A DNA stretch of 64,000 bases from Negativicutes bacterium (GTDB lineage Bacteria; Bacillota; Negativicutes; JAGPMH01): the NCBI GenBank assembly GCA_018052945.1, contig JAGPMH010000001.1, forward strand, positions 8,220-72,219, in the 5' to 3' direction. The notes beneath the pieces were generated by a model. That model was not told where the DNA came from. It searched no databases and saw nothing but the letters and a program-made list of their open reading frames with translations. Positions 1-7,844 of this stretch are shown one piece after another; positions within the stretch are counted from its first letter, which is position 1, and the number at the start of each line of letters is the position of its first letter. The position numbers and the translations under genes are program-made.

Positions 1-1249
1 AGCTGAGTTTGCAATTGTCAAGGTTAGAAGTTCGCGAATTGACGCCTTAGTACAAGAAGGAACTGCAAGAGCTAAGTTTGGCGCTAATTTAGTGCATAAC
101 TTAGATTCATATTTGTCGGTATCACAATTAGGAATTACCTTAGCATCACTTGGGCTGGGGTGGATTGGAGAACCGGCAGTAGCAAAATTTATATATCCGG
201 TGTTAAGTAGCTTTGAGCTTAGTAATGAAATGGTGCATACGATTTCATTTGCCATTGCTTTTTCCTTTATCACAGCGCTACATATTGTTTTAGGAGAGTT
301 AGCACCAAAGTCTTTGGCAATCCAAAAAGCTGAAGCTGTTACTTTGTGGGTAGCCATTCCGATGATTGCCTGTTATAAGTTAATGTATCCCTTTGTATGG
401 GTGCTAAATCATATTGCGGCCGGAATTTTGAAATTATTTGGCATTAAATTAGCTAATGATGTAGAAGCGGCTCATTCCGAAGATGAAATTCGTAGTTTGA
501 TGGAGGAAAGCCATAAACAAGGTTATATCAATCAAACCGAATTGACTTTAGTAGATAATATTTTTGATTTTGCAGAAAGAAATGCTAGAGAGGTAATGAT
601 TCCGCGGACTGACATGGTCTGTCTTTATACTGAAGATTCTTTCGAAAAAAACTTAGAAGTAGCATTGACGGAGCAATTGACCAGATTTCCTATCTGTGCT
701 CCGGATAAAGATAATATTATCGGTTTTGTGCATATCAAGGATTTATTTGCAGCAGTAGCTTCCGGTGAAAAGCCAGAGGTTCAGAGCATTGCTCGTAAAA
801 TAATTGCTGTTCCTGAGTCGATGCCACTTAGTAACTTGCTGAAGTTGTTGCAAAAGCATCGTTCTCAAATAGCCTTGGTCGTGGATGAATATGGTGGTAC
901 TTCGGGGATGGTAACAGTTGAGGATATCTTGGAAGAAATTGTTGGTGAAATTCAAGATGAGTTTGATGAAGAAAGACCGGCAATTGAAGAACGAGATTTA
1001 AACTTATATTCAGTCGATGCAAAGTTGCTTTTAGAAGAAATTAATGATATCTTAGGATTAGAATTGGTTTCAGATAGTTTTGATACTATTGGTGGTTGGT
1101 TATATTCAAAAATTGAAATACCACCAAAGGTTGATGAGAAGATTCAATTCAATGGTGATGAATACATTGTTGAAGAGGTTGACAATGTCAGAATAACCAG
1201 AGTATTAATAAGTATTAATGATGAAAAAAATAGCGAAATAGCTGAGTGA
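1..1249 (+). CDS. CNNM(DUF21)-CBS-CorC_HlyC family protein (HlyC/CorC-type putative Mg2+/Co2+ efflux or hemolysin-like), 5' partial
   Basis: ORF 92..1249 stays open in frame up to the window edge (AEFAIVKVRSSRIDALVQEG...). It has the DUF21 TM region, a CBS pair and a C-terminal CorC/HlyC transporter-associated domain. Confidence 0.8.
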   Translation, partial: AEFAIVKVRSSRIDALVQEGTARAKFGANLVHNLDSYLSVSQLGITLASLGLGWIGEPAVAKFIYPVLSSFELSNEMVHTISFAIAFSFITALHIVLGELAPKSLAIQKAEAVTLWVAIPMIACYKLMYPFVWVLNHIAAGILKLFGIKLANDVEAAHSEDEIRSLMEESHKQGYINQTELTLVDNIFDFAERNAREVMIPRTDMVCLYTEDSFEKNLEVALTEQLTRFPICAPDKDNIIGFVHIKDLFAAVASGEKPEVQSIARKIIAVPESMPLSNLLKLLQKHRSQIALVVDEYGGTSGMVTVEDILEEIVGEIQDEFDEERPAIEERDLNLYSVDAKLLLEEINDILGLELVSDSFDTIGGWLYSKIEIPPKVDEKIQFNGDEYIVEEVDNVRITRVLISINDEKNSEIAE

Positions 1250-1597: not shown

Positions 1598-3127
1598 ATG
1601 AAGGACAAAAAGGTTTCAAGGCGTAATTTTTTTAAATTAGTTGGTAGTGCCGGCCTTTTAGGGACAAGTGTGATAGCTACTGGTTGTAGTGGTGACCCTG
1701 CGGGTGGAAAAGGTTGGATGCCTAGTCAATATAACTCTGCCGGAAGTTGGCCGGTAAAAGTTAAAGGACGTATTGCTATTGACGATAACAATCTATCCAT
1801 TGAACGAGATGATGCTAAATGCATCTTATGTGGACAATGTATCGAAGTTTGTAAAAATGTTATGAGTGTGTATGGAACATATGAATTGCCAATAAAAAAT
1901 GACACTCCTTGTGTAAATTGTGGACAATGTAGCTTATGGTGTCCATCCGGTGCTATAACAGAAAAAAATAATATTAAAGAATTAATGGCTGCTTTAAATG
2001 ATAAAAGTAAACATGTCATTGTGCAAACCGCTCCGGCAACAAAAGTTGCCTTAGGTGAAGAATTTGGGTTAGCACCAGGTAGTATTGTTGAAGGGAAGCA
2101 AGTTGCCGCCTTAAAAGAAATCGGCTTTGATGCGGTTGTTGACACTTGTTTTTCTGCTGATTTAACAATAATGGAAGAAGCTGCAGAAGCTTTGCATAGA
2201 TTGACTTCAACTGACAAACCGGTACCGATGTTTACCTCTTGCTGCCCAGGGTGGGTTAAATTCTGTGAATACTATTATCCAGAATTGATTGGCAATTTAT
2301 CAAGTTGCAAATCACCACAACAAATGATGGGAGCAGTAGTAAAGACTTATTATGCAAAAGAAAAAGGGTTAAACCCTGAAAATATTTTCTCGGTAGCAAT
2401 AATGCCTTGTACGGCGAAAAAAGCTGAATGTAAGAGGCCTGAAATGAATTCAGCCGGCCATGAGCATGGTAATGCTGACATAATGGATGTGGATTGTGTT
2501 ATTACTACTAGAGAATTAGCACAGTTAATTAAAAGTAAAAAAATAAACCTGAATAATTTAGCTGATGTTAAATATGATTCAATTCTTGGTGAAAGTACTG
2601 GCGCTGGTGTTATTTTTGGTACCACCGGTGGAGTAATGGAAGCGGCAATCAGAACTTTATACTATAATGTTACTAAAGATAATCCACCGGAAGAATTGTT
2701 AAATTGGCAAAGTGTCCGTGGATTAAATGGTGTAAAAGAAGCTACTGTTAGTGTTCCAGGTGTTGGTGAGGTTAGCATCGCTGTTTGTCATGGTTTAAAA
2801 AATGCCAGAACCGTACTTAAAAAAGTGAAAAATAAGGAAGCTTCGTGGCAATTTATTGAGTTTATGGCTTGCCCTGGTGGGTGCATTGGTGGTGGTGGTC
2901 AACCGCGTACTTCCTTGCCACCAACAGATGAGATTAGAAAGGCTAGAATTGCTAATCTATATAGCCTTGATAACAAAGCTGTGAAAAGACTTAGTTATCA
3001 AAATAAAGAAATTCAAGATGCTTATAGCAAATATTTGACACAGCCTTTAAGTCATAAGGCTGAAGAGCTATTGCATACACGTTTTGAGAATAAAAGTAAT
3101 TTACTTAATGCCAAGAAAGATGTGTAA
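1598..3127 (+). CDS. [FeFe] hydrogenase catalytic subunit with an N-terminal twin-arginine (Tat) signal peptide; 2x[4Fe-4S] F-cluster domain plus H-cluster domain
   Basis: SRRNFFK Tat motif. Two CxxCxxCxxxC(P) ferredoxin motifs (CILCGQCIEVC, CVNCGQCSLWCP). H-cluster signatures L1 TSCCPGW, L2 MPCTAKKAE, L3 EFMACPGGCIGGGGQP. GGAGG lies 11 nt upstream of the ATG. Confidence 0.85.
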   Translation: MKDKKVSRRNFFKLVGSAGLLGTSVIATGCSGDPAGGKGWMPSQYNSAGSWPVKVKGRIAIDDNNLSIERDDAKCILCGQCIEVCKNVMSVYGTYELPIKNDTPCVNCGQCSLWCPSGAITEKNNIKELMAALNDKSKHVIVQTAPATKVALGEEFGLAPGSIVEGKQVAALKEIGFDAVVDTCFSADLTIMEEAAEALHRLTSTDKPVPMFTSCCPGWVKFCEYYYPELIGNLSSCKSPQQMMGAVVKTYYAKEKGLNPENIFSVAIMPCTAKKAECKRPEMNSAGHEHGNADIMDVDCVITTRELAQLIKSKKINLNNLADVKYDSILGESTGAGVIFGTTGGVMEAAIRTLYYNVTKDNPPEELLNWQSVRGLNGVKEATVSVPGVGEVSIAVCHGLKNARTVLKKVKNKEASWQFIEFMACPGGCIGGGGQPRTSLPPTDEIRKARIANLYSLDNKAVKRLSYQNKEIQDAYSKYLTQPLSHKAEELLHTRFENKSNLLNAKKDV

Positions 3128-3173
3128 TTAAGTTGTTGCTTAGGGTAATATTATTCTTTATAGAGGTGAAAAA

Positions 3174-3959
3174 ATGGGGCAGGGTAACGGTGTATTAGTT
3201 GATCTAACCAAGTGTATTGGTTGTGGGAGTTGTACAGTTGCTTGTAAACTGTGGAATAAATTAGAGTTTGATAAGAAAAAACCTACTACTGGTAATGATG
3301 TCAAATTAGTTGATAAAAACTGGACAGTAGTAACGAAAAATGAAGTTCAAGATAAGCAAAATTCTACAGCGTGGCGTTTTGTCAAAGAGCAATGTATGCA
3401 TTGTGTTGAACCAGCCTGTGCATCAGCTTGTTTCTCTAAGGCGTTACAACGCGATGAAAATGGCGCGGTAGTATATTATCCTGATTTATGTGTAGGTTGT
3501 CGTTATTGTATGATTGCGTGCCCATTTGATGTACCAAAGTATGAGTGGGAAAAAGCTTTTCCTTTAGTGACAAAGTGCCAAATGTGTTCAACGCGGATGA
3601 AAGATAGTCAAGCACCGGCTTGTGTCGATGTTTGTCCAACCGGCGTTATGAAATTTGGTACTCGTGATGAATTATTAAAACAAGCTGAAACCAAAATAGC
3701 TACTGATGCTAAATATGTAAAGCATATTTATGGTGCGAATGAGGTTGGAGGTACGAGCTGGTTATATTTATCGGATGTTCCGTTTGAAAAATTAGGTTTC
3801 AAAATGAATTTAGAAAGTGTTGCACCATCTACTTATACTCATAAATATCTTTCGAAAGTTCCAGCCTTAGCGATTGGCTGGGGTGCTTTTTTAACTGCTT
3901 TAGCAGTTTATACTAACCGTCGTAAAAAGTTAGGAAAAGACAAGCAGAAAAAAGATTAA
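3174..3959 (+). CDS. 4x[4Fe-4S] ferredoxin-type electron-transfer subunit (HybA/FdnH/PsrB-like) with a C-terminal transmembrane anchor
   Basis: Four Cys clusters: CIGCGSCTVAC, CMHCVEPACASAC, CVGCRYCMIACP, CQMCS...CVDVCP. Hydrophobic C-terminal helix VPALAIGWGAFLTALAVY followed by RRKK. No signal peptide. RBS AGAGGTG. Confidence 0.8.
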   Translation: MGQGNGVLVDLTKCIGCGSCTVACKLWNKLEFDKKKPTTGNDVKLVDKNWTVVTKNEVQDKQNSTAWRFVKEQCMHCVEPACASACFSKALQRDENGAVVYYPDLCVGCRYCMIACPFDVPKYEWEKAFPLVTKCQMCSTRMKDSQAPACVDVCPTGVMKFGTRDELLKQAETKIATDAKYVKHIYGANEVGGTSWLYLSDVPFEKLGFKMNLESVAPSTYTHKYLSKVPALAIGWGAFLTALAVYTNRRKKLGKDKQKKD

Positions 3960-3993
3960 TAATTACGGAAGAATGTTATGAGGAGGATTTGTT

Positions 3994-5181
3994 TTGAAAA
4001 GGATTAAAAAACAATATAAGCATGTTGATATATTAGGCTGGAAGTTTACCATAACACCAATGCGTTTTGTTTTAACGGCGATTGCGTTATTGAGTTTTGC
4101 GGTAATGTTGGTGCGGTTTATAACAGGTTATAGTCTGGTAACTAATTTGACGGATGAATCACCATGGGGGTTATGGATTGCTTTTGATGTTATGACCGGA
4201 GTAGCCTTAGCCGGTGGTGGTTATTCAACCGCTTTGTTGGTACATAGCTTTGAATATAAAAAATACAAGGCGGTAGCTAGAGGTGCACTATTAACATCAC
4301 TGTTTGGTTATATCCTCGTTATGGTTGGTTTATTCCTTGATATTGGTCAATGGTTTAATTTTTGGCGGCCGTTTGTTTCTTGGGGCTATAGCTCAGTTTT
4401 ATTTGAAGTTTTTTGGTGTATTTCAATTTATACTACCATCTTAAGTTTAGAATTTGCCGAAGTTGTTACAGAACGAATTGGCAAAAATGTCCATAGATTT
4501 ATTTTAAAAGCATTACCGGTATTAATTATTATAGGTTTAATTTTCCCAATGATGCATCAATCATCATTAGGTGGCTTATTTTTGATTGCAAAGAGTAAAA
4601 TGTATCCGTTATGGTGGAGTGAATTTTTACCGCTTTACTTCTTAATGTCATCATTCTTTGTTGGTTCAGCAATGGTTTGTATCGAGACGGAACTTGCTAG
4701 AAGAGCTTATCGTCATGAGATTCCTACCAATGTTTTAAAAAACCTGACAAGAGTAGGGGCTCGTATTATGGCGGCGTACCTAGCATTAAAACTTTTTGAT
4801 ATTATTGCGCAAGGTCAAGTTGGACTATTATTTGCTGGTAATATGCAAAGTAATATGTTTTTATTAGAATTATTTTTAGGAATTATCATTCCGCTAGGAA
4901 TTATCTTTAGTCCGTATGCCAAAACTCGTAATGGTTTATTGACATACTCCTTACTGGTGGCAGGGGGCGTTGTTTTAAATCGAATGAATATGGTCTTTAC
5001 TTCGATGTATACTAGTGGGAGCTATTTCCCTTCGATCTGGGAATTTATCGTAAGTGCCGGATTGATTTCAGTAGGCTGTTTATTATATTGTTTCATCGTT
5101 GAAAACTTCGTAGTAATTGGCGAATCATATGCGGTGCCGGCCAAAGTTCAAGATGCAACCGGTGAACATTCAGTACATTAA
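3994..5181 (+). CDS. NrfD/PsrC/HybB-family polytopic membrane (quinone-interacting) subunit
   Basis: 395 aa with about 8-10 predicted TM helices. TTG start 7 nt after AGGAGG. Lies 34 nt after the FeS gene (operon). Confidence 0.7.
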   Translation: MKRIKKQYKHVDILGWKFTITPMRFVLTAIALLSFAVMLVRFITGYSLVTNLTDESPWGLWIAFDVMTGVALAGGGYSTALLVHSFEYKKYKAVARGALLTSLFGYILVMVGLFLDIGQWFNFWRPFVSWGYSSVLFEVFWCISIYTTILSLEFAEVVTERIGKNVHRFILKALPVLIIIGLIFPMMHQSSLGGLFLIAKSKMYPLWWSEFLPLYFLMSSFFVGSAMVCIETELARRAYRHEIPTNVLKNLTRVGARIMAAYLALKLFDIIAQGQVGLLFAGNMQSNMFLLELFLGIIIPLGIIFSPYAKTRNGLLTYSLLVAGGVVLNRMNMVFTSMYTSGSYFPSIWEFIVSAGLISVGCLLYCFIVENFVVIGESYAVPAKVQDATGEHSVH

Positions 5182-5209
5182 AAAGCGTGAGCTAAGGCTC
5201 ACGCTTTTT
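5180..5209. terminator. Bidirectional intrinsic terminator between the convergent hydrogenase operon and the EAL-GGDEF gene
   Basis: Perfect 8-bp GC-rich stem GCGTGAGC-taag-GCTCACGC, flanked by AAAAA and TTTTT. Confidence 0.75.
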
Positions 5210-7016
5210 ATATATGGTCTTTAATAATAAAATTACTTTTTTTGATATTTTTACAAAGTTTTTTTATTTCAGCGGTTTTTGAAGCAAGACTTTTATTGTT
5301 AATGTTACGTTTGTTAAAAACCCTTAATGCTGCTAATGATATAGTCATAAGTGGAAATTTCTCTGAAACGTTGTTGCGATTATTAGCAACAACGTATTTT
5401 TGTTCCTGATGTTCAATCGAATAAAAAAACTTAGCTTGTTCATCAAAAGTTTCAATGATGGTGTTGCATAAATCTTCAATTTTTATTGAGGGCAGAAAAA
5501 CTATAAAGTCATCACCACCGATATGTCCAAGAAAATAATCACTACAATGAGTTTTTAGGCTGGTATTGATAAGTTCAGCAGTTGTCGATAAGGCAGTGTC
5601 ACCGGCTTCGAACCCATAGACGTCATTATAAGCTTTAAAATTATCAATATCGATGTAAATAGCGCTAAAAGGTATTAGCTGGTTAATATGACGGCTAGTT
5701 TCCCAATCGATAATTAAATTTCCCGGCAATCCGGTTAGTGGATTGGCATGACGAGCACGATTTAATTCAATTTGGGTGGTTTCTTCTAATAACCTTTTGA
5801 TGGATACAACTCCATAATAATTATTATCTTTGGTGATAATAATATTATTATATATTTCGTCGGTTGTACGGTTAAGGGCGGTTTTTGTTGCTATTTCAAT
5901 GGGGGTATTGTAGTCGATATTTAATGCTTTAGTATTAATAAGAATTTCAATAGGACGCTTACTATAAATTGATAGACCAAAAGGGGTTGCCAGATTATTT
6001 AGAAAAAGATCTTTGTTAATCATACCGAGGGGAATATTATCCTCTAAAATTACAGCACTGCTACTACCACTATTTTCTTTGAAATAATGTAAGATTTCTT
6101 GACCTAATGTTTCCTTGGTAAATGTCTGTTCTTTAGTGGCAATAGTGCCAATTGGTGCATAGAGCTTAGTGTTCATACTATATTGTGTTTTACTAAAAAA
6201 TTCTTGTTGAATTGTATCAATAATGTTTAAAGACGGTGTTGTTAAGGTCGGCTGCGGTTTCCCTAAAAAGAAGCCCTGACCGAAATTTACCCCTAGCTTA
6301 ATAAGAATTTTTAATTCAGCACAACTTTCAATACCTTCACCAATTGTTTTTATTCCGGTAGCAGTACTAAAATCAACAAGTGCCTTAATAATAGCTTGTT
6401 TATGTTTGTCCTTATCGCAGTTTCTGATTAATTCTAAATCAATTTTGATAAATTGCGGTGAAGTTTGTGCTAGTAATGTTAAGCCGGAATAACCTGACCC
6501 GACATCATCTAGTGCTAAGCGATAGCCTTGTGAACGGTAATTTTCCAAGATATCTTTAAAATTAGCTAAATCAGTAATAGCTGTTTTCTCAGTAATTTCA
6601 AAGACAATTTGACTAATATTAATAGTGTGCTCAGCTAAGATAACTTTAGTTGAACCATGGTGAAAAAATTTATCATATAAAACCTTAGGGTCAACATTAA
6701 TAAATAAAATTTTATCATTAATTGAGGGAAACGCTGTTTCAATAGCAGTAATTCGGCATAAATAATCTAATTCCCAAGTCTTTTCGAGATCGTTAGCTAC
6801 AGAAAATAGTTGATCGGGGCTGGCTAAAATGCTGTTAAGCGGACCACGACTTAAGGCTTCATAGCCTAAGACCGAGCCATCTTGTAAGTTTACAATAGGC
6901 TGAAAAAATGTGGTAATAGATTTTTCTTTTAATATTTTATTTAACTCCAAAGCCTGAGCTGTTTTTTCTGTTAGTACAGGTGCTGTCGCTATGGATAAAA
7001 AATTATGATTATGCAT
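5208..7016 (-). CDS. c-di-GMP signalling protein with N-terminal EAL domain, central CBS pair and C-terminal degenerate GGDEF domain
   Basis: EAL motifs QPIVNL, EALSR, DDVGSGYSGL, KID, EGIE, GQGFFLGKP. CBS-like stretches VILEDNIPLGMINKDLF and IIITKDNNYYGVVSIKRLLE. GGDEF domain ends ...HIGGDDFIVFLP, i.e. GGDDF instead of GG[DE]EF. Confidence 0.8.
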   Translation of the reverse strand: MHNHNFLSIATAPVLTEKTAQALELNKILKEKSITTFFQPIVNLQDGSVLGYEALSRGPLNSILASPDQLFSVANDLEKTWELDYLCRITAIETAFPSINDKILFINVDPKVLYDKFFHHGSTKVILAEHTINISQIVFEITEKTAITDLANFKDILENYRSQGYRLALDDVGSGYSGLTLLAQTSPQFIKIDLELIRNCDKDKHKQAIIKALVDFSTATGIKTIGEGIESCAELKILIKLGVNFGQGFFLGKPQPTLTTPSLNIIDTIQQEFFSKTQYSMNTKLYAPIGTIATKEQTFTKETLGQEILHYFKENSGSSSAVILEDNIPLGMINKDLFLNNLATPFGLSIYSKRPIEILINTKALNIDYNTPIEIATKTALNRTTDEIYNNIIITKDNNYYGVVSIKRLLEETTQIELNRARHANPLTGLPGNLIIDWETSRHINQLIPFSAIYIDIDNFKAYNDVYGFEAGDTALSTTAELINTSLKTHCSDYFLGHIGGDDFIVFLPSIKIEDLCNTIIETFDEQAKFFYSIEHQEQKYVVANNRNNVSEKFPLMTISLAALRVFNKRNINNKSLASKTAEIKKLCKNIKKSNFIIKDHI

Positions 7017-7280
7017 ATTAACCTCCTAAGATTGAGTCCTTATTTATAATGTAACAAGAAGAAAGAAGGTTTTTGTAAAAAATATGTTAAGATTTTGTAA
7101 AGATTGTTAATTACTAAGTTAAAACATAATATAATAAACTTTTTATTAATGGATAATTATTATTCAAAGAAACATACTATACATAAAAGTTTTAAAGAGT
7201 TATAATAAATTGTAATGTAATAGATTGATAAGGTAAATTAATGCCTTGTCTCAAGATACATTTTTGCTGGGAGGGATATT

Positions 7281-7844
7281 ATGACGATATTAGAGGAAGT
7301 ACTAGAATCTAATGACCATTTTGTAAAACATTTGCCTGAAGTATATTGTGCGATAAAACAACACGAAGCAAAATTGCCGAATAGACATTTGGCAATAGTT
7401 ACTTGTATGGATACAAGATTGGTGGATTTTTTAGAGCCGGCGTTAGGCATAAGACGTGGTGAAGCGAAAATTATTAAAAATGCTGGAAATACGGTGACCG
7501 GTCCGTTTGAGGCGACTATCCGTAGTTTGATGGTCGGTGTGTTTGAACTTGGGGTAAAAGAAATTATGGTTATTGGACATCATGATTGTGGAATAGCCAA
7601 TACAACGTCACAAAACTTAATTGAAAAAATGTTAAATCGGGGTATTTCAAAAGATGCGATAAGGATGATACAAGAAGAGCTAGTGCGTTGGTTAGATAAT
7701 TTTAAATACCCGGTAGAAAATGTGAAACAAGTTGTTGAAAAAATTCGTACTAATCCGTTGATTCCCAATGATGTTCCGGTTCATGGGTTAATGTTTGACC
7801 CGCACTCAGGAAAAATTGATATTATAATTGATGGCTATAAATAA
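7281..7844 (+). CDS. beta-class carbonic anhydrase
   Basis: CMDTR (CxDxR) and HHDCG (HxxCG) zinc-ligand motifs. 187 aa. GGGAGGG RBS. Confidence 0.8.
   Translation: MTILEEVLESNDHFVKHLPEVYCAIKQHEAKLPNRHLAIVTCMDTRLVDFLEPALGIRRGEAKIIKNAGNTVTGPFEATIRSLMVGVFELGVKEIMVIGHHDCGIANTTSQNLIEKMLNRGISKDAIRMIQEELVRWLDNFKYPVENVKQVVEKIRTNPLIPNDVPVHGLMFDPHSGKIDIIIDGYK

Follow-up and report, generated by a model that had tools for sequence, protein, structure and literature searches.

We analyzed a 64,000-nucleotide (nt) stretch of DNA from a Negativicutes bacterium (contig JAGPMH010000001.1, positions 8,220 to 72,219; hereafter the window) and focused on a complete open reading frame (ORF) at 5208-7016 on the minus strand, which encodes a protein of 602 amino acids (aa) plus a stop codon. 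The protein carries an N-terminal EAL domain, a pair of CBS domains, and a C-terminal GGDEF-type domain with the signature GGDDF. We are moderately confident that it acts as a soluble phosphodiesterase of the RapA/PA3258 family, directed at cyclic diguanylate (c-di-GMP) and gated by its own CBS-GGDDF module. Its architecture, the conservation of its catalytic and binding residues, and its full-length homology to the likely Pseudomonas aeruginosa ortholog of PA3258 were observed directly; phosphodiesterase activity is presumed from the literature on homologs, and the gating of the EAL domain by nucleotides is something that we infer by analogy.

Domain architecture and family membership

The ORF is preceded by the ribosome-binding site AGGAGG (7022-7027, minus strand), read directly from the sequence 5 nt 5' of the ATG at 7016. 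Its product is identical to NCBI entry MBP8628467.1, a "GGDEF domain-containing protein" from a Negativicutes bacterium metagenome-assembled genome (MAG), and that identical protein belongs to a 90%-identity cluster of 184 sequences in which one, MBP8628467.1, is named. The EAL phosphodiesterase domain occupies aa 25-254 (6255-6944, on the minus strand like all features of the protein) and was recognized by Pfam (PF00563, E = 4.5e-51, profile positions 4-236 of 236), by alignments, and by Foldseek. A long helix at aa 263-281 (6174-6230) connects it to a CBS pair, or Bateman module, that profile and fold searches located at aa 286-411 (5784-6161; CBS1 at ~286-342 and CBS2 at ~353-411), and a second long linking helix at aa 406-423 leads into the GGDEF-type domain at aa 424-602 (5211-5747), defined by Pfam and alignments. 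Both helices were taken from a full-length AlphaFold model (predicted local distance difference test [pLDDT] 88.6, predicted template modeling score 0.74). The H-I-G-G-D-D-F signature, identified from the sequence and from family conservation, lies at aa 498-504 (5505-5525), and the motifs EALSR, DDVGSGY, KID, EGIE, GQGF, and HIGGDDF were all found in the ORF. NCBIfam models recognized only generic EAL and GGDEF regions, with equivalog cutoffs unreached, and scans with Pfam and NCBIfam detected no PAS, GAF, REC, or transmembrane segment in the 602-aa protein. We conclude that it is a cytoplasmic, soluble protein of three parts: EAL domain, CBS pair, and GGDEF-type domain. The initial annotation of this DNA, made from the letters alone, had proposed the order EAL-CBS-CBS-GGDEF and the absence of such a sensor or membrane segment, and both proposals agree with the Pfam, NCBIfam, profile, and fold searches.

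A tblastn search against PLSDB returned full-length collinear matches in many Proteobacteria. One P. aeruginosa record encodes a 601-aa "EAL and GGDEF domain-containing protein" between a gene for a C-terminal processing peptidase (prc) and the FKBP isomerase gene fklB together with rdgC, an order that we take to be the PA3257-PA3263 neighborhood of strain PAO1. Given that gene order and the published description of PA3258 as an "EAL-CBS-GGDEF protein" whose P. fluorescens homolog RapA depletes c-di-GMP under phosphate starvation (PMC12900916), the 601-aa protein is likely the PA3258 ortholog. The 602-aa protein aligns with it collinearly over 577 residues (32% identity, E = 1e-104), has the same three Pfam domains, and shares with it the sequences ARHANPLT.LPGN and GHIGGDDF, the D.D.FK.(F/Y)ND.YG...GD block, and R547. 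Because the alignment is collinear from end to end and includes the common domains and GHIGGDDF, we assign the 602-aa protein, by sequence, to the RapA/PA3258 family. It resembles RapA of P. fluorescens Pf0-1 and PA3258 further in domain order, in length (602 vs. 601 aa), and in its intact set of EAL residues, but the identity to the P. aeruginosa protein is low and the hosts are a Gammaproteobacterium on one side and a Gram-negative-type Firmicute (Negativicutes) on the other. Three P. aeruginosa "plasmid" records in PLSDB (CP075839.1, NZ_CP137508.1, and NZ_CP042268.1; our locus L005) carry what appears to be the chromosomal prc-PA3258-fklB-rdgC neighborhood; they were perhaps deposited as plasmids although they are pieces of a chromosome or integrative elements.

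The domain order had initially been described as unusual. Compared with the GGDEF-EAL arrangement it is indeed reversed, but it is not new, having been described for PA3258, RapA, Bordetella DdpB, and a Streptomyces protein (PMC12900916, PMC12805831, PMC6205966). In DdpB (BB2957), two CBS domains likewise separate the EAL-type domain from the GGDEF-type domain and the motif GGDDF is present, but its EAL motif is ESL (PMC12805831), whereas that of the 602-aa protein is fully canonical; the Streptomyces EAL-GGDEF protein also has GGDDF (PMC6205966). The 602-aa protein is thus an ordinary member of a widespread, recognized family, and its NCBI entry already bears a generic annotation. For the window itself this has little consequence, as the family has a characterized representative.

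The breadth of the family was sampled by a genome scan with the patterns GHIGGDDF and NFKxYNDxY, which gave at least 600 rows; 80 loci were kept (L011-L090) and 90 loci were analyzed in total. The 80 kept loci come from Bacillota (Negativicutes, Clostridia, and Bacilli), Desulfobacterota, Acidobacteriota, a Brocadiaceae MAG, and Beta- and Gammaproteobacteria.

The EAL domain retains its full catalytic and metal-binding set (E53, R57, N107, E140, E143, D170, D171, K191, E227, E230, and Q247), residues that we take to correspond to RocR E175, R179, N233, E265, E268, D295, D296, K316, E352, E355, and Q372. These 11 residues and Q39 were invariant in 84 aligned relatives (41-80% identity), and all 11 were kept in 86 of the 90 genomic homologs, which span several phyla. 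Loop 6 reads DDVGSGYSG. The best Foldseek matches of the region were EAL structures, with template modeling scores of up to 0.9 on the target, and the nearest solved structures were the active EAL enzymes VcEAL of Vibrio cholerae (6ifq) and MucR of P. aeruginosa (5m1t). We predict that the domain is catalytically competent. It had been called intact-looking at the outset, a description that the presence and family-wide invariance of all 11 catalytic positions bear out.

In the middle of the protein, Pfam applied to the single sequence found one CBS stretch, aa 361-411, which was below threshold (16 bits vs. a cutoff of 24). The middle regions (residues 256-428) of 23 of 23 family members matched Pfam CBS, with a best E value of 5.7e-14. 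When a profile of the middle region was searched against PDB sequences, nearly all matches were CBS proteins, with both halves of the region covered, and the few non-CBS matches all had E values of 0.45 or weaker. Modeled with AlphaFold (pLDDT 83.5), the region forms two beta-alpha-beta-beta-alpha repeats and gave 400 Foldseek matches in the PDB at E <= 1e-3, the best 50 of which were all CBS pairs aligned over ~130-140 columns (CorC, CBSX1/2, MgtE, AcuB, DarB, and OpuCA). These results confirm tandem CBS folds forming a Bateman module; the CBS pair suggested from the letters was thereby upheld in the very test named for its refutation, here run with a family hidden Markov model (HMM), the PDB profile, and the fold search. 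According to a 2022 review, CBS is one of the c-di-GMP sensory domains whose role still lacks experimental validation (PMC8846402).

The GGDDF domain and its conservation

Pfam PF00990 (GGDEF) matched aa 426-535 with E = 1.3e-15 over profile positions 5-117 of 161 only, and the C-terminal third of the domain was unmatched by the profile both in the 602-aa protein and in nine of nine homologs scanned. The motif at aa 498-504 reads HIGGDDF and so contains the GGDDF that had been noted from the letters. GGDDF was present in 119 of the 120 best homologs. A phmmer search with the CBS-GGDEF half against 1.84 billion 50%-identity cluster representatives gave 670 matches at E <= 1e-30, and among the best 150 of these representatives (28-49% identity), 146 had GGDD[F/Y] and 145 had His at position -2. 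Our evidence for conservation is confined to these 120 homologs and 150 representatives, since the occurrence of H498, GGDD, and N464 in 100% of L011-L090 was partly built in by the patterns of the genome scan. A sequencing error, which the initial annotation had set down as something to check, does not account for the motif: the identical protein belongs to the cluster of 184 sequences, and 119 of 120 homologs read alike.

Two changes are therefore fixed across the family: the Glu found at motif position 4 of active cyclases is replaced by Asp, and the usual Arg at position -2 is replaced by His. In an alignment to DgcZ, G500-G501-D502-D503-F504 fall on GGEEF and H498 on the usual Arg; D456 corresponds to the metal-binding D165, and N464 and D473 correspond to the guanine-binding N173 and D182. 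We take the PleD equivalents of D456, N464, and D473 to be D327, N335, and D344, and that of K589 to be K442. The active-site (A-site) residues D456, N464, D473, G500, G501, D502, and K589 are conserved in the 84 relatives and 90 loci, K589 being nearly invariant. As judged from these residues, the GTP/Mg-binding pocket of the domain is complete. Diguanylate cyclases commonly, but not universally, have an inhibitory site (I-site) of the form RxxD five residues before the GGDEF motif. Neither the DgcZ alignment nor the family alignment showed an RxxD I-site in the GGDDF domain; the residue opposite the DgcZ I-site Arg is S492, at a position that varies across the family. The word "degenerate", which had been applied to GGDDF, does not fit a near-invariant family signature that comes with His at -2 and with the other A-site residues conserved. 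H-x-GGDDF is better regarded as a conserved signature in its own right, and automated calls of "inactive diguanylate cyclase" for proteins that carry it are unsafe.

Conserved residues in the 602-aa protein also include R547, H498, and R383. R547 (nt 5376-5378, minus strand), part of an "A.NR" motif, is situated in a beta-hairpin that follows the GGDDF-bearing strand and is present in 85 of 85 ungapped loci (of 90) and in the Pseudomonas protein; its counterpart in canonical diguanylate cyclases could not be assigned.

The core of the protein recurs in other settings. Among the representative matches, the EAL-CBS-GGDDF core was found behind a complete protein with PAS, canonical GGDEF, and EAL domains (P0187, 1022 aa) and behind N-terminal extensions of ~170 aa with no Pfam match (~750-790 aa; P0142, P0145, and P0146 are examples), and CBS-GGDDF was found without EAL in proteins of ~340 aa (P0148 and P0156). 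Since P0187 already has a canonical GGDEF domain and the unit travels independently, this suggests that CBS-GGDDF is a portable sensory or regulatory module and not the cell's cyclase.

Proposed mechanism and alternatives

In the mechanism that we favor, the N-terminal EAL domain would hydrolyze c-di-GMP to pGpG, and the long helix would join it to a C-terminal regulatory unit made up of the CBS pair and the H-x-GGDDF domain. The GGDDF domain would bind GTP, while the CBS pair would bind a small ligand and/or set the dimer geometry. The connecting helices would then pass the state of the GTP site and of the Bateman module to the EAL domain and so gate its activity, as GTP does in Caulobacter PdeA (CC3396), whose catalytically dead GGDEF domain reportedly lets GTP activate the EAL domain. 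PdeA is our working model as an analogy of mechanism only: it, too, has an active EAL domain next to a non-canonical GGDEF domain with a preserved nucleotide pocket, but its GGDEF domain precedes the EAL domain, it lacks a CBS pair, its motif reads GEDEF instead of GGDDF, and it belongs to another sequence family. It has been cited as having phosphodiesterase activity only (PMC8835794). That the GGDDF domain serves as a GTP-binding allosteric module is accordingly a live and reasonable hypothesis. Among the Pseudomonas relatives, RapA converts c-di-GMP to pGpG, is regulated by the Pho system through a Pho box, and depletes c-di-GMP at low phosphate (PMC3032545), and overexpression of PA3258 gives phosphodiesterase-type phenotypes (PMC12900916). 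LapD and LapG are the downstream targets in Pseudomonas.

Several observations weigh against this mechanism. The initial annotation had suggested that the CBS pair could couple phosphodiesterase activity to adenylates or c-di-AMP, a link that is conjectural. CBS domains that bind adenosine ligands canonically carry the motif G-h-h-(T/S)-x-x-D, whose Asp normally contacts the ribose of the ligand. The Asp is absent from both repeats of the 602-aa protein, where its position is taken by L337 in CBS1 and R408 in CBS2, whereas the CBS2 Asp is present in 57 of the 90 homologs and in the Pseudomonas protein; because of these replacements, the CBS ligand site may have diverged. The full-length AlphaFold model is of a monomer, and the family member for which hydrolysis of c-di-GMP to pGpG has been demonstrated, RapA (PMC3032545), comes from outside Bacillota. 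That both acidic residues of GGDD and the whole A-site are so strictly kept would be expected of a catalytic site no less than of a binding site. In addition, the GGDDF domain of GSU1937 from Geobacter sulfurreducens makes cyclic dinucleotides in vivo (PMC8835794), and PA3258 with an inactivated EAL domain behaves like a cyclase in Salmonella, with an increased red, dry, and rough (rdar) morphotype and motility below the vector control, which was read as residual diguanylate cyclase activity (PMC12900916). These two reports contradict the initial prediction that the GGDDF domain would have no cyclase activity, and we do not consider that prediction safe.

The same reports, together with an A-site that is invariant apart from the Glu-to-Asp and Arg-to-His changes and the strong selection implied by near-absolute conservation of GGDDF, could point to a switchable bifunctional enzyme in which GGDDF acts as a functional diguanylate cyclase and the CBS pair switches the protein from synthesis to degradation of c-di-GMP and back. 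We regard this as possible but doubtful. The RxxD I-site is absent, the C-terminal third of the domain departs from the GGDEF profile in the 602-aa protein and in all nine homologs scanned, the -2 Arg that is normally conserved in active cyclases is always His, and the relative P0187 already bears a separate canonical GGDEF domain. The phenotypes argue in the same direction, as the effect of RapA is net degradation (PMC3032545), the "GGDDF/EAL-containing protein PA3258" is described as showing no c-di-GMP phenotype in PAO1 (PMC8835794), and neither overexpression nor deletion of PA3258 raised c-di-GMP in P. aeruginosa, as cited in PMC8835794. GSU1937, whose GGDDF is the sole one published as catalytically active, differs from the 602-aa protein in being a membrane protein, in lacking both EAL and CBS domains, and in having the Hypr-diagnostic Ser where D473 stands (PMC8835794).

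That Ser bears also on whether GGDDF might make some other nucleotide signal, either cyclic GMP-AMP (cGAMP), as Hypr GGDEF domains do, or an oligoadenylate, as made by the GGDD palm domain of Cas10, with cross-talk between second messengers as the outcome. In favor of this idea, a Hypr cGAMP synthase is the one enzyme with GGDDF for which activity has been shown (PMC8835794), and there are weak Pfam matches to the Cas10/Cmr2 palm2 domain (E = 0.055 in the 602-aa protein and 6.5e-4 in P0136). These Cas10 matches are sub-threshold, however, and the specificity position is Asp (D473) in 90 of 90 loci, which matches c-di-GMP cyclases, whereas Hypr enzymes have Ser there (PMC8835794), with N464 invariant as well, so that we consider such a product very improbable. 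We give equally little credence to a catalytically silent receptor or scaffold in the manner of LapD or FimX, in which both domains would only bind nucleotides. Some members do have altered EAL domains (the ESL motif of Bordetella DdpB, PMC12805831; one Glu missing in the Streptomyces homolog, PMC6205966), but the 11 catalytic residues are intact in the 602-aa protein and in 86 of 90 homologs, loop 6 is unaltered as DDVGSGYSG, and RapA is an active phosphodiesterase (PMC3032545).

Phosphate genes near homologs and the surroundings of the gene

The Pho control of RapA has a parallel in the gene neighborhoods of other family members. We built HMMs for PstS and PhoU from homolog loci and searched the six-frame ORFs of the 90 loci, whose median total flank was 16.8 kb; iterated PstC and PstA HMMs drifted to generic ATP-binding cassette (ABC) permeases in the Pseudomonas loci and those matches were discarded, so that only PstS or PhoU was counted. 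One or both were found within 10 kb in 12 of the 90 loci (L004, L009, L010, L019, L026, L031, L034, L037, L038, L040, L044, and L072), and 11 of these 12 were among the 43 non-proteobacterial loci. The chance expectation is at most 1%, a rough, arithmetical estimate that sets ~20 kb of flanking DNA against genomes several Mb in size, and some of the positive loci are interrelated.

The arrangements vary across Negativicutes, Paenibacillus, Desulfitobacteriaceae, Lachnospiraceae, and Desulfovibrionaceae. In Anaerosporomusa two permease genes, interpreted by us as pstC and pstA, immediately precede the homolog. In Azotosporobacter and a related genome, the homolog is flanked on one side by a sensor kinase gene that we interpret as PhoR-like and on the other by genes interpreted as pstS-pstC-pstA; phoU and a gene for an ABC ATPase are found upstream. 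The homolog lies directly 3' of pstSCAB-phoU in two Paenibacillus genomes and after pstSCA in a Desulfovibrionaceae MAG, is divergent from pst-phoU in Desulfosporosinus and Desulfitobacterium, and is convergent with pst/phoU genes in a Lachnospiraceae MAG. Because these neighborhoods parallel the Pho control of RapA, they suggest an old association of the RapA/PA3258 family with phosphate status, and their recurrence outside Proteobacteria suggests that a RapA-type link from phosphate to c-di-GMP could long predate Pseudomonas and extend well beyond it. The genomic association does not extend to the window: RapA is Pho-regulated, but no pst or phoU homolog was found in the 64 kb around the gene studied here. 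More tentatively, CBS plus H-x-GGDDF could be an ancient portable sensor through which c-di-GMP turnover in different phyla responds to the status of phosphate or nucleotides, with GGDDF perhaps an alternative catalytic or GTP-sensing motif; the 602-aa protein would then be a member whose genomic Pho linkage was lost and whose CBS2 ligand site was changed. We hold this broader proposal with clearly less confidence than the gated phosphodiesterase described above.

The gene is convergent with a three-gene operon at 1598-5181 (plus strand) that encodes a 509-aa [FeFe]-hydrogenase with a twin-arginine translocation signal (RRNFFKLVG) and fused large and small subunit domains (Fe_hyd_lg_C and Fe_hyd_SSU), a 261-aa 4Fe-4S cluster protein, and a 395-aa NrfD-type membrane subunit. 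The product looks like a periplasmic, membrane-anchored [FeFe]-hydrogenase. The nrfD-like gene ends at 5181, and the 26-bp gap between it and the EAL-CBS-GGDDF gene holds a perfect 14-bp hairpin flanked by runs of A and T. Sequence reading and folding identified this element (5179-5210, overlapping both stop codons) as an intrinsic terminator, AAAAAGCGTGAGC-TAAG-GCTCACGCTTTTT. The hairpin folds equally well on both strands (dG of -21.7 and -20.7 kcal/mol; z of -8.9 and -8.2), and we therefore regard it as a bidirectional terminator common to the two genes, in agreement with the convergent arrangement and shared terminator described initially. The element escaped a scan for consensus terminators, probably because the run of T was taken up by the stem. 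An Rfam search of 4900-7500 returned only sub-threshold, terminator-like noise and no riboswitch 5' of the gene.

We considered a functional link between the gene and the hydrogenase operon and rejected it, as an 80%-identical relative has three unrelated genes between the two and the neighbors in more distant relatives are unrelated. The relative L001 (80% identity) retains the operon itself. Upstream of the operon, at 92-1249 (plus strand), is a gene for a CNNM/CorC-type putative Mg2+/Co2+ efflux protein (CNNM-CBS-CorC_HlyC), a second CBS-bearing neighbor that is probably unrelated to the 602-aa protein; from its GTG start the CNNM profile is matched at positions 47-181 of 181, and the real start is perhaps upstream of the window. 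On the other side, the divergent upstream neighbor of the EAL-CBS-GGDDF gene encodes a beta-class carbonic anhydrase (7281-7844, plus strand). The carbonic anhydrase gene is still adjacent in the 80%-identical relatives (L001/L002, 5170-5772), in which the opposite flank is rearranged.

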